The translations under genes were made by a program, and so were the position numbers. The notes under the pieces are model-generated. The model saw nothing but the letters and a program-made list of their open reading frames with translations, had not been told where the DNA came from and searched no databases. DNA of 64,000 bases from Escherichia coli (GTDB taxonomy: Bacteria; Pseudomonadota; Gammaproteobacteria; Enterobacterales; Enterobacteriaceae): assembly GCF_003334815.1 (NCBI RefSeq), contig NZ_QOWO01000018.1; one strand, given 5' to 3'. Of this stretch, positions 34,135 to 45,068 are shown one piece after another. Numbering within the stretch: position 1 is the first letter of the stretch; every line of letters starts with the position of its first letter.

Positions 34135-34587
34135 ATGAATAACATACAAATAAGAAACTATCAGCCTGGCGATTTTCAGCAACTATGCGCTATTTTCATT
34201 AGAGCGGTTACGATGACCGCCAGTCAGCATTATTCACCACAACAAATTTCCGCCTGGGCGCAGATTGACGAATCTCGCTGGAAGGAGAAACTCGCGAAAT
34301 CACAAGTGTGGGTTGCGATCATTAATGCACAACCGGTTGGTTTTATTTCCCGCATTGAACATTATATCGATATGTTATTTGTTGACCCTGAATACACCCG
34401 CCGTGGGGTTGCCAGCGCTTTGTTAAAACCTTTGATTAAGTCTGAATCCGAACTTACGGTGGACGCAAGCATAACCGCAAAACCCTTTTTTGAACGTTAT
34501 GGTTTTCAGACAGTTAAGCAGCAGCGCGTTGAATGCCGGGGAGCGTGGTTTACTAATTTTTATATGCGATATAAACCGCAACATTAA
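34135..34587 (+). CDS. yafP: GNAT-family N-acetyltransferase YafP
   Basis: 150 aa; acetyl-CoA binding motif region ...RRGVASALLKPL... Confidence 0.85.
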   Translation: MNNIQIRNYQPGDFQQLCAIFIRAVTMTASQHYSPQQISAWAQIDESRWKEKLAKSQVWVAIINAQPVGFISRIEHYIDMLFVDPEYTRRGVASALLKPLIKSESELTVDASITAKPFFERYGFQTVKQQRVECRGAWFTNFYMRYKPQH

Positions 34588-34892: not shown

Positions 34893-35159
34893 ATGGAATG
34901 GTACATGGGCAAATATATTCGTCCCTTATCCGATGCGGTATTTACCATCGCATCTGATGACCTGTGGATCGAGAGTTTAGCGATCCAACAATTACACACC
35001 ACGGCAAATTTACCCAACATGCAGCGCGTAGTGGGGATGCCAGATTTACACCCCGGACGCGGCTACCCGATTGGCGCAGCGTTCTTCTCTGTTGGTCGTT
35101 TTTACCCGGCAAGACGTCGCGGTAACGGTGCTGGAAACAGAAACGGGCCGCTACTCTGA
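34893..35159 (+). pseudogene. ykfJ: rtcB-like RNA ligase remnant (N-terminal fragment, ykfJ-like)
   Basis: 88-codon ORF with [18 protein letters not shown] (RtcB metal-site motif), then loss of frame; overlaps prfH. Confidence 0.55.
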
Positions 35160-35628
35160 CACACTGCGTTCGGCGCTGGTTTCTCTCGATGGCGATAACG
35201 CATGGGCATTAAGCGAAAGCTGGTGTGGCACTATTCAGTGGATTTGTCCGAGTCCGTATCGGCCTCATCATGGGCGCAAAAACTGGTTTCTGGGCATTGG
35301 GCGTTTTACCGCTGATGAGCAGGAACAATCGGATGCAATCCGTTATGAGACGCTGCGTTCGTCGGGGCCGGGCGGTCAACATGTCAATAAAACCGACTCG
35401 GCGGTACGCGCCACGCATTTGGCATCCGGTATTAGCGTGAAGGTTCAGTCAGAGCGTAGTCAGCATGCTAACAAGCGGCTGGCACGATTGCTGATTGCCT
35501 GGAAGCTGGAGCAACAGCAACAGGAAAATAGCGCGGCGCTGAAATCGCAGCGGCGAATGTTCCATCACCAGATTGAACGTGGCAACCCGCGACGGACATT
35601 TACAGGGATGGCTTTTATCGAAGGATAA
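35071..35628 (+). pseudogene. prfH: Peptide chain release factor homolog RF-H, N-terminally truncated (TTG start in ORF track)
   Basis: GGQ motif [11 protein letters not shown]; begins at a TTG inside the rtcB remnant. Confidence 0.65.
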
Positions 35629-37952: not shown

Positions 37953-39197
37953 ATGACACAGGCAAACCTGAGCGAAACCCTGTTCAAACCCCGCTTTAAA
38001 CATCCTGAAACCTCGACGCTAGTCCGCCGCTTTAATCACGGCGCACAACCGCCTGTGCAGTCGGCCCTTGATGGTAAAACCATCCCTCACTGGTATCGCA
38101 TGATTAACCGTCTGATGTGGATCTGGCGCGGCATTGACCCACGCGAAATCCTCGACGTCCAGGCACGTATTGTGATGAGCGATGCCGAACGTACCGACGA
38201 TGATTTATACGATACGGTGATTGGCTACCGTGGCGGCAACTGGATTTATGAGTGGGCCACCCAGGCGATGGTGTGGCAACAAAAAGCCTGTGCGGAAGAC
38301 GATCCGCAACTCAGTGGTCGTCACTGGCTGCATGCGGCTACGTTGTACAACATTGCCGCCTATCCTCATCTGAAAGGAGATGACCTGGCCGAGCAAGCGC
38401 AGGCTTTGTCAAACCGCGCCTATGAAGAGGCCGCTCAGCGTCTACCGGGCACGATGCGGCAGATGGAGTTTACCGTACCCGGCGGTGCGCCCATCACCGG
38501 CTTTTTGCATATGCCGAAAGGCGATGGCCCGTTCCCGACGGTATTAATGTGTGGTGGTCTGGATGCGATGCAGACGGACTATTACAGCCTGTATGAACGT
38601 TATTTTGCGCCGCGCGGCATTGCGATGCTGACTATTGATATGCCGTCGGTGGGCTTTTCTTCAAAATGGAAGCTCACCCAGGACTCCAGCCTGTTGCATC
38701 AGCACGTCTTAAAGGCGCTGCCTAACGTACCGTGGGTGGATCACACTCGCGTCGCGGCCTTTGGTTTCCGTTTCGGCGCTAACGTTGCCGTGCGTCTGGC
38801 ATACCTTGAATCGCCGCGTCTGAAAGCGGTTGCCTGTCTTGGTCCGGTAGTTCATACCCTGTTGAGTGATTTTAAGTGCCAGCAACAGGTGCCGGAAATG
38901 TATCTTGACGTTCTGGCCAGTCGTTTGGGGATGCATGATGCTTCCGATGAAGCGTTGCGCGTGGAGCTGAATCGCTATTCATTAAAAGTGCAAGGATTGC
39001 TGGGACGTCGCTGCCCAACGCCAATGTTATCAGGCTACTGGAAGAACGATCCGTTCAGCCCGGAAGAGGACTCACGCTTAATCACCTCATCATCTGCTGA
39101 CGGTAAATTATTAGAGATCCCATTTAACCCGGTGTATCGGAATTTTGACAAAGGTCTTCAGGAAATCACCGACTGGATCGAAAAACGCTTGTGTTAA
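37953..39197 (+). CDS. frsA: Esterase FrsA (fermentation/respiration switch protein)
   Basis: 414 aa alpha/beta hydrolase; conserved gpt-frsA-crl context. Confidence 0.9.
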
Positions 39198-42152: not shown

Positions 42153-43406
42153 ATGCTGGAACAAATGGGCATTGCCGCGAAGCAAGCCTCGTATAAATTA
42201 GCGCAACTCTCCAGCCGCGAAAAAAATCGCGTGCTGGAAAAAATCGCCGATGAACTGGAAGCACAAAGCGAAATCATCCTCAACGCTAACGCCCAGGATG
42301 TTGCTGACGCGCGAGCCAATGGCCTTAGCGAAGCGATGCTTGACCGTCTGGCACTGACGCCCGCACGGCTGAAAGGCATTGCCGACGATGTACGTCAGGT
42401 GTGCAACCTCGCCGATCCGGTGGGGCAGGTAATCGATGGCGGCGTACTGGACAGCGGCCTGCGTCTTGAGCGTCGTCGCGTACCGCTGGGGGTTATTGGC
42501 GTGATTTATGAAGCGCGCCCGAACGTGACGGTTGATGTCGCTTCGCTGTGCCTGAAAACCGGTAATGCGGTGATCCTGCGCGGTGGCAAAGAAACGTGTC
42601 GCACTAACGCTGCAACGGTGGCGGTGATTCAGGACGCCCTGAAATCCTGCGGCTTACCGGCGGGTGCCGTGCAGGCGATTGATAATCCTGACCGTGCGCT
42701 GGTCAGTGAAATGCTGCGTATGGATAAATACATCGACATGCTGATCCCGCGTGGTGGCGCTGGTTTGCATAAACTGTGCCGTGAACAGTCGACAATCCCG
42801 GTGATCACAGGTGGTATAGGCGTATGCCATATTTACGTTGATGAAAGTGTAGAGATCGCTGAAGCATTAAAAGTGATCGTCAACGCGAAAACTCAGCGTC
42901 CGAGCACATGTAATACGGTTGAAACGTTGCTGGTGAATAAAAACATCGCCGATAGCTTCCTGCCCGCATTAAGCAAACAAATGGCGGAAAGCGGCGTGAC
43001 ATTACACGCAGATGCAGCTGCACTGGCGCAGTTGCAGGCAGGCCCTGCGAAGGTGGTTGCTGTTAAAGCCGAAGAGTATGACGATGAGTTTCTGTCATTA
43101 GATTTGAACGTCAAAATCGTCAGCGATCTTGACGATGCCATCGCCCATATTCGTGAACACGGCACACAACACTCCGATGCGATCCTGACCCGCGATATGC
43201 GCAACGCCCAGCGTTTTGTTAACGAAGTGGATTCGTCCGCTGTTTACGTTAACGCCTCTACGCGTTTTACCGACGGCGGCCAGTTTGGTCTGGGTGCGGA
43301 AGTGGCGGTAAGCACACAAAAACTCCACGCGCGTGGCCCAATGGGGCTGGAAGCACTGACCACTTACAAGTGGATCGGCATTGGTGATTACACCATTCGT
43401 GCGTAA
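42153..43406 (+). CDS. proA: Gamma-glutamyl phosphate reductase
   Basis: 417 aa aldehyde dehydrogenase family, directly after proB. Confidence 0.95.
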
Positions 43407-43520: not shown

Positions 43521-43596
43521 GCCGATATAGCTCAGTTGGTAGAGCAGCGCATTCGTAATGCGAAGGTCGTAGGTTCGACTCCTATTATCGGCACCA
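43521..43596 (+). tRNA. thrW: tRNA-Thr (anticodon CGT)
   Basis: 76-nt cloverleaf GCCGATATAGCTCAGTTGGTAGAGCAGCGCATTCGTAATGCG...GGTTCGACTCCTATTATCGGCACCA with encoded CCA; anticodon loop ttCGTaa. Confidence 0.9.
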
Positions 43597-43722
43597 TTAA
43601 AATCAAAGAGTTACCCCATATTTAAATACACCACGTTTCCTCCTGTGCCGTATTTGTGCCATTGTAACCTTGGCAATTCATCAAAATACTGTTCTGACAT
43701 CAGGCAGTGCAGGTGCAGACAT

Positions 43723-44133
43723 TTAAGCCAATTGCTGCCGCCATTCTTTGACGTAGTCAATCAGGGCGCGGAGCTTTGGTGCAATATTGCGACGCTGTGG
43801 GAAATACAGATAGAAGCCCGGAAATTGTGGAAGAAAGTCATCAAGCAGCGATACAAGCTTACCGCTTTCAATATATGGCCTGAAAGTTTCCTGAGTGGCA
43901 ATTGTTATTCCTCCGCCGGCAAGAGCCAGCCTCAACATCAGACGCAGATCATTAGTCGTAATCTGCGGTTCAATCGCAAGGTCGAAAGTTCTCCCGTTTT
44001 CTTCAAATGGCCAGCGATAAGGCGCAACCTCCGGGGACTGACGCCAGCCGATACACTTATGGGTATTTCCCCCGGAGGCGAGAAAGCGCTCTCCACGCCC
44101 GGCCGCAAGGATCAGGACGACGGGGGCAGGCAT
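43723..44133 (-). pseudogene. yagP: Truncated LysR-family regulator remnant (yagP-like; substrate-binding domain C-terminus only)
   Basis: 137 codons from ATG 44133; C-terminal LysR-like ...GKLVSLLDDFLPQFPGFYLYFPQRRNIAPKLRALIDYV; no HTH domain; overlaps paoD 3' end. Confidence 0.5.
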
Positions 44134-45068
44134 GAATCCTCCTCCTGATGGAGACGTACAGAGGCGACTTCTGCCAGCACGGAGAGTGCCAGAGTATGCG
44201 CATCCCGGGCTTTGGGGAATATCCCGACGGGTGCCCGGATTTGCGTTGTTTCCTCCCTGGACCATCCCAGCTCGTGGAGCTTTTGCAGACGTAACGTGTG
44301 GGTTCGATAGCTGCCCAATGCGCCGAGATAAAAGGGTTTTGCTTCTCGCGCGGCCTGCAACACTGGCAGCTCCCGGTTGAGATCATGGCACAGCAAAATG
44401 ACCGCCGTATCGGTATCGATCTGAGCGCTGGCTGAGGCCGGAAAAAGATCGAAGATATGGCTGTCATAGCCTGTGGCTGCTGCAAGACTCGCGGTTGCCT
44501 GCGCCTCAAGAGAACGTCCGTAAATCATCAGCCTGACGCATGGCCTGAACCCCACCTCAAAGCCATTGAGATTCCAGCCCGTCCGGGTTTGCGTGGGCAG
44601 GCACACCAGCGATTGTGCTTGCGGATCGTAGCGCAGCCCCACCGGTTTTCTCTGTTCCAGGCGGTTCAGCACGGCGAGCAGAGGCTGTGCCGAGCGTAGT
44701 TTATGGAGCGTCAGCGTGATCCCACCGCCGCAGGGCAGAACGATGTCAAACCACGGCGAACCTTCGCCATAGCGAATTTCGCGATCGCGGCCTGAGCCCA
44801 TCATCTCCAGCGCTTCAAAAGCGGCAGCGGCCTCCACGCAGCCGCCAGAGACAAAACCGCAGTAACGACCATCTTCGCGCACCACCATCTGCGCCCCGAG
44901 CGGGCGCGCCGCGCCGCCGCGTATCTCCACCAGCGTCACCAGCACCGCTCCTTTACCGGACATTAGCGCCTCTACGGCGAAGCGCAGAATGGTCCGGTGG
45001 TCATCGGTGAGAAACGCCTGCTCTGGCTTATGCCAGTGTTCGTCTTTGTCAAAAAGCGGGTATGACAT
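44112..45068 (-). CDS. paoD: Molybdenum cofactor insertion chaperone PaoD (XdhC family)
   Basis: 318 aa, XdhC/CoxI-like; downstream of paoABC. Confidence 0.8.
   Translation of the reverse strand: MSYPLFDKDEHWHKPEQAFLTDDHRTILRFAVEALMSGKGAVLVTLVEIRGGAARPLGAQMVVREDGRYCGFVSGGCVEAAAAFEALEMMGSGRDREIRYGEGSPWFDIVLPCGGGITLTLHKLRSAQPLLAVLNRLEQRKPVGLRYDPQAQSLVCLPTQTRTGWNLNGFEVGFRPCVRLMIYGRSLEAQATASLAAATGYDSHIFDLFPASASAQIDTDTAVILLCHDLNRELPVLQAAREAKPFYLGALGSYRTHTLRLQKLHELGWSREETTQIRAPVGIFPKARDAHTLALSVLAEVASVRLHQEEDSCLPPSS

Follow-up and report, generated by a model that had tools for sequence, protein, structure and literature searches.

An unoccupied thrW attachment site in Escherichia coli and the probable remnants of earlier rearrangements at its flank

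The tRNA gene thrW is a recognised integration hotspot (PMC7545054), and an E. coli chromosome in which no element lies at this gene raises the question of what such an empty site records. It may never have been used, or it may carry traces of former occupants, and the truncated regulatory gene found beside it has to be explained in either case. Here, this question is addressed in a stretch of 64,000 nt from E. coli (hereafter the window). The preliminary description of this DNA had proposed an empty thrW site followed by a fragment of a LysR regulator. Our analysis makes it very probable that the unoccupied attachment site is flanked by three fossils, namely an integrase relic, the stump of a MocA-like gene and the chimeric ORF yagP, which would have been formed by a microhomology deletion.

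The attachment site at thrW

The intact tRNA-Thr gene thrW (anticodon CGT) lies at 43521–43596 on the plus strand, where it was detected by ARAGORN and by Rfam (RF00005, 71.8 bits), and it is the sole tRNA gene that ARAGORN finds in the whole window. Positions 43551–43596, on the same strand, correspond to the 46-bp att core ATTCGTAATGCGAAGGTCGTAGGTTCGACTCCTATTATCGGCACCA, which is used by phages of the SfI, SfII, SfV, SfX and P22 types (PMC3636060). The conserved left flank of the site holds proB and proA, the latter an ORF at 42153–43406 (plus strand) that is annotated as proA in the identical stretch of ATCC 8739. On the right, a spacer of 126 nt (43597–43722) leads to an ORF of 137 codons (43723–44133, minus strand), which is overlapped by 22 nt by paoD (44112–45068, minus strand), identified from its ORF and annotation as the last gene of paoABCD, and beyond paoD lie paoC, paoB and paoA. 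This is the direct succession of tRNA, ORF and paoD that the preliminary description had reported. No RNA family other than the tRNA was found with Rfam, a scan for terminators in the spacer found none, and the one promoter-like match in the spacer is at chance level.

With regard to occupancy, the stretch is an unoccupied thrW attB in the empty-site configuration. The tRNA gene is intact, the att core is single and no direct repeat flanks it in the 64-kb window: a search for a second thrW 3’ end with a 25-mer, allowing up to 3 mismatches, returned 1 match only, and a search of the window for degenerate copies with blastn-short (word size 7) gave a best other match of 12 nt (E 0.42). Since the 46-bp core occurs only once in the window, the thrW site is read as an unoccupied attB. 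Neither island cargo nor an attR is found at thrW, the spacer being all that separates the tRNA gene from the LysR stop codon, and tblastn of the window with HK542 Int and K-12 IntF gave nothing significant beyond the relic at 43611–43665 that is discussed below. The absence of an att duplication and of an island, claimed before on first inspection, is borne out by these searches.

The same configuration is found in other strains. In a set of 5426 complete E. coli genomes, the sequence runs uninterrupted across attB, with the same flank, in 948, and 769 of these are contiguous across the whole of thrW, yagP and paoD. Strains W, B (REL606) and Crooks (ATCC 8739) share the gene order proA-thrW-yagP-paoD with the window; thrW is listed as unoccupied in all three (PMC3032704, Table 2), and a ‘thrW/yagP’ intergenic region is listed in a REL606-based annotation (PMC5809092). 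ATCC 8739 is 100% identical to the window over 1.1 kb around the locus and 96–99.5% identical elsewhere. A 24-kb stretch of the window is ~100% identical to EC416, Ecol_AZ155 and others, which places the strain with this group and sets it apart from ATCC 8739. From 43545 onward, the window is 99.88% identical to K-12. In K-12, the sequence is split by the 34.3-kb CP4-6, with the left match ending at 43614 and the right match starting at 43545, in agreement with the earlier statement that a large prophage is inserted at thrW in that strain. O157:H7 carries a P4-like element at the same point, and BR1220, with flanks ~100% identical over 24 kb, carries a P4-like satellite of 12,412 bp at exactly this position. 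Both flanks are contiguous in the window and separated in these three strains, so that the comparison with element-bearing strains suggested in the preliminary description upholds its empty-site reading.

The BR1220 satellite is bounded by an 18-bp repeat (43580–43597 in window numbering) and contains genes for an integrase, an Icd-like protein, a DUF927 primase, ogr/Delta and a Shedu nuclease. Because the 46-bp core is identical and a strain with near-identical flanks holds this 12.4-kb element, the core of the window should still accept thrW-targeting integrases. BR1220 also bears on how the site came to be empty, as it differs from the background of the window essentially by this element and its 18-bp repeat, which is a substrate for precise integrase-mediated excision. 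It is therefore possible that a CP4-6-like or P4-like island was recently removed by precise excision, as opposed to never having been acquired, but we hold this to be rather unlikely; such an excision leaves no scar, and a site emptied in this way reads in sequence just like one that the island never entered.

In the BR1220 satellite (L091 10599–22992), the Shedu immune nuclease gene adjoins attR, and an IS3-family element lies inside ogr/Delta. Additionally, 44 bp at 38882–38925 of the 44.8-kb plasmid NZ_CP172337.1, within an annotated integrase gene, match the 3’ end of thrW and the bases downstream of it with 93% identity, and may represent the attP of a phage-plasmid.

Other parts of the window also differ between strains. 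Positions 1–32253, upstream of dinB, hold a complete-looking Flag-2 (lateral flagella) cluster with lafA, lafU, motA, flg/fli paralogues and a glycosyltransferase gene, identified from the annotation of the 96–98% identical ATCC 8739 stretch; K-12 retains only remnants of Flag-2. The prfH region (35071–35628 and 34135–34587) looks degenerate, and related strains annotate a prfH pseudogene beside an RtcB fragment. In comparison with ATCC 8739, the window has no IS1 at yafO and an intact ecpC; yafP is intact in the window, and the record of silver-adapted ATCC 8739 has an IS1 in that spot.

The integrase relic in the spacer

Read outward from the tRNA, the window presents thrW, 14 nt, an integrase stop codon (43611–43613) and the last 17 codons of the gene up to 43665, where the similarity stops abruptly. 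This relic (43611–43665, minus strand), recognised by alignment with tyrosine integrases of the HK542/mEp213/SfX type, reads NGTNTAQEE, a 1-bp deletion and NVVYLNMG*, as against NVVYLNAR* in HK542. By tblastn, 9 of 9 residues agree with residues 370–378 of HK542 Int, together with 6 of the 8 residues that follow the 1-bp deletion. At 55 bp the relic is short, and it spans residues 370–386 only, downstream of the region of the catalytic tyrosine and thus outside the R-H-R-Y catalytic domain. An integrase remnant adjoining the tRNA, one mark of a decayed island or prophage, is present, and a partial tRNA repeat and cargo, which are further marks, are not. The preliminary description had stated that there is no integrase at the site, and had named a thrW direct repeat with an integrase remnant as the sign of a decayed island. 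Its statement holds for the gene and fails for this 3’ end; of the two elements of that sign, the repeat is missing and the remnant exists.

The phage affinity of the relic is apparent from a blastn comparison of the tRNA-free spacer with 50,697 phage records, which gave 18 phage matches (E 1e-13 to 7e-10) at 83–87% identity, all over spacer positions 1–68 (in one case 9–68). The best match of the relic without the tRNA part has 87% identity and an E of 1e-13, and the single spacer match at 100% is a prophage record that includes host flank. This type of integrase is found in the lambdoid phages HK542, mEp213, mEp043, HK446, mEpX2, HK75, ECP1 and SfX, and attP in the HK542-group phages, which lies immediately next to the stop codon of int, is annotated as a match to thrW/ptwF. 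The attL of HK542, mEp213, mEp043 and SfX lysogens has the same order and spacing as the window (thrW, 14 nt, int stop codon, int C-terminal codons), at 83–87% identity, but the window holds only 17 codons with a frameshift and neither xis nor a prophage nor attR. Furthermore, some occupied genomes match the window for 68 nt past the tRNA, ending inside an annotated integrase pseudogene, and in genomes that have an integrase at thrW, whether intact or partial, the alignment reaches exactly window position 43664. The phage matches end at spacer position 68, and the following 57 nt up to the LysR stop codon (43666–43722), which have no phage match and are conserved in O157 and K-12, presumably represent the 3’ flank of the LysR gene.

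These comparisons suggest that the thrW site is not pristine and that, in the distant past, it was occupied and then emptied by an imprecise deletion on at least one occasion. The opposite polarity would require an attB that was never used, with phages taking up host flank by aberrant excision and thereby acquiring the likeness at the end of int. Identity between attP and attB does pass the end of the tRNA in several elements, the repeat of K-12 CP4-6 reaching 43614 and the HK542 attP annotation reaching the int stop codon, so that some host-like flank in phages is normal. However, many phages have, in the segment concerned, the coding 3’ end of a functional integrase, the more distant integrases of the SfII/SfV type have a homologous tail of equal length, and the chromosomal copy is frameshifted and breaks off inside the ORF. 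Moreover, at thrW in AVS0196, this integrase survives over 68 codons, among them the catalytic RRYAHL or catalytic-tyrosine region (…EMVRR*AHLS…). In the light of these features an unused attB appears improbable, and because the segment is coding in phages, has the homologous SfII-type tail and is frameshifted in the chromosome, we infer that it passed from phage to chromosome.

With regard to the age of the prophage remnant, the same relic is found beyond attR in both K-12 and O157, which suggests that it is older than the islands of those strains, and it appears to belong to the common flank of the lineages with the LysR/pao region. Strains that lack pao, such as AVS0196 (L005 9523–11212), have a different right flank at thrW, in which a P4-type integrase pseudogene, attR, a 48-codon integrase relic of the SfII type and then yagU are found; the thrW island of AVS0196 carries type I R-M and AbiE genes. 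The separate SfII-type relic of the pao-less lineages would imply repeated use of the hotspot, with imperfect clearance on more than one occasion.

The composition of yagP and the 6,134-bp deletion

The 137-codon ORF (136 aa plus stop) corresponds to K-12 yagP (b0282), a 411-bp ORF in the same position next to paoD that is 99.9% identical and is annotated as ‘putative LysR family substrate binding domain-containing protein’. The preliminary description had regarded the whole ORF as the C-terminal fragment of a LysR regulator, which is accurate for 113 codons. Pfam LysR_substrate (PF03466) matches ORF aa 24–131 only, over model positions 103–207 of 209, and BLASTP aligns aa 24–136 with residues 187–299 of the intact 299-aa LysR protein of O157:H7, with 110 of 113 residues identical. 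PGAP marks exactly 43723–44061 as a partial LysR pseudogene. This segment (minus strand; 113 codons including the stop) comprises the second half of the effector-binding domain and is devoid of the N-terminal winged HTH. Because half an effector domain and no HTH are left, YagP cannot function as a regulator of the LysR family. LysR sequence accounts for 113 of the 137 codons only, and codons 1–26 come from a different gene.

These first codons (44056–44133, minus strand; MPAPVVLILAAGRGERFLASGGNTHK) resemble the beginning of a MocA-like (NTP_transf_3) gene that would once have followed and overlapped paoD. Genes of 183–188 aa follow and overlap the paoD homologue in Pluralibacter, Leclercia, Enterobacter, Silvania, Dryocola, Kosakonia and others, in a contig scan with PaoD that gave other Enterobacteriaceae and returned no E. 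coli, E. albertii or E. fergusonii locus. The first 26 residues of the stump are identical to these full-length relatives at 20–22 of 26 positions (BLASTP E 2e-12 for 22/26), and the overlap with the paoD stop is the same, but in E. coli the gene breaks off after codon 26. The full-length gene matches PF12804, the MobA/MocA-like nucleotidyltransferases, at E 2e-21; against TIGR03310 (MocA) it reaches E 5e-20 to 7.5e-24, below the curated cutoff, so that it is to be seen as a relative of MocA and not as an equivalog. Of a complete nucleotidyltransferase fold of ~180–190 aa, E. coli thus keeps the 26 N-terminal codons, which in the undeleted arrangement of O157 form a dead end.

The two stumps meet at a deletion junction. 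The window aligns to O157 in two blastn segments that overlap by the five bases TTATG at 44057–44061, a microhomology also seen against PCP06238 (L088), and the copies of this pentamer lie at 12477–12481 and 18611–18615 of the O157 stretch L002, which gives a deletion of 6,134 bp. The breakpoint flanks read ACACTTATG followed by ATTCAC and AATTTATG followed by GGTATT. The undeleted right side in PCP06238 is AATTTATGGGTATTT, an exact match to the window, and O157 lacks one G there. The microhomology consists of His-Lys codons (CAT AAG) common to both genes, and the MocA-like stump is fused in frame to the LysR stump, the junction in YagP reading …GGNTHKCIGWRQ…. What K-12 annotations present as a LysR fragment or domain protein is here shown to be composite, with a MocA-like 5’ stump joined to a LysR 3’ stump; no account of the origin of yagP was found in the literature searched for this gene.

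O157:H7 has the intact 299-aa LysR gene at the same position, with a block of 6.1 kb before paoD, in the order LysR, SDR oxidoreductase, hypothetical protein, ykgR fragment, second LysR, alpha/beta hydrolase, MFS transporter, MocA-like stump and paoD. The block (L002 12482–18610), which is absent from the window, includes an incomplete copy of ykgR as well as a module of LysR, alpha-beta hydrolase and MFS genes, and an intact ykgR lies ~15 kb downstream in the region of the window, which points to an earlier duplication or rearrangement involving both places.

The LysR 3’ end is present in some form in 3280 of the 5426 genomes. The TTATG junction, that is the yagP allele, accounts for 2685 of them, K-12 included, and the LysR gene is intact across both breakpoints in 415. 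Most of the remaining ~180 show a second, independent deletion with a break at window position 43953, as in PCP06238, where thrW is also empty; the LysR 3’ region is wholly absent from the other ~2100 genomes. Since K-12 shares the junction with so many strains, the deletion appears to be independent of thrW occupancy. The proposal that the truncated regulator marks an older rearrangement is supported by these data, and the rearrangement would be the loss of 6,134 bp relative to the O157:H7 arrangement. The rarity of the intact arrangement might be taken to indicate that the LysR fragment is ancestral and that O157:H7 gained its 6.1-kb block by insertion. Such an insertion, however, would have to supply exactly the 186 missing N-terminal codons in frame, to yield a complete 299-aa LysR that agrees end-to-end with the LysR family models, and would also have to end at a 5-bp repeat, whereas a microhomology deletion is the simple reading; in addition, the second allele truncates the same LysR gene at a different point. 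We regard an insertion as scarcely credible.

With the origin of yagP attributed to a deletion, the question arises of whether its product has a role. A Shine-Dalgarno-like sequence, AGGAGGAGG (44138–44146, minus strand), stands 4 nt before the start codon ATG (44133), within the 3’ end of paoD, and would be a ribosome-binding site by its sequence. As this site and the start codon are kept, the fusion is in frame and about half of the sequenced E. coli retain it, YagP could be a small protein that is translated along with the pao operon and has acquired a role, for instance in binding a LysR partner or PaoD. Such a protein would combine the stump of a nucleotide-binding loop with half a LysR effector domain, and a role of this kind seems very unlikely to us.

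History of the locus and its implications

From the observed anatomy, homologies, breakpoints and allele counts, an order of events may be reconstructed, in which parsimony would set both age and polarity for the relic and for the MocA-like loss. A lambdoid prophage of the HK542/SfX type would once have resided at thrW with int next to the tRNA, as in the attL of such lysogens, and an imprecise deletion would have taken all but the last 17 int codons, restoring a single intact thrW. The ancestral enterobacterial pao operon probably ended with a gene of the MocA-like cytidylyltransferase family overlapping paoD, of which E. coli keeps 26 codons. An arrangement like that of O157:H7 would then have been shortened by 6,134 bp between the two TTATG pentamers in the His-Lys codons of both genes, which would have placed the last 110 LysR codons in frame behind the MocA-like stump and given rise to yagP.

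The hotspot status of thrW, its emptiness in W, B and Crooks and the annotation of yagP are already known, and the new details are curatorial; old scars at a tRNA hotspot are ordinary and unsurprising. Nevertheless, a stretch of 600 bp would record four events, namely the gain of a prophage, its imprecise loss, the loss of the last gene of an operon and the creation of a chimeric ORF by microhomology deletion. For annotation, yagP is better described as a fusion pseudogene than as a LysR-domain protein, and the 55 bp after thrW should not be counted as native flank in the mapping of att sites. Strains in which the locus is so arranged should provide a free thrW attB for HK542, mEp and Sf-type phages and for P4-like satellites.
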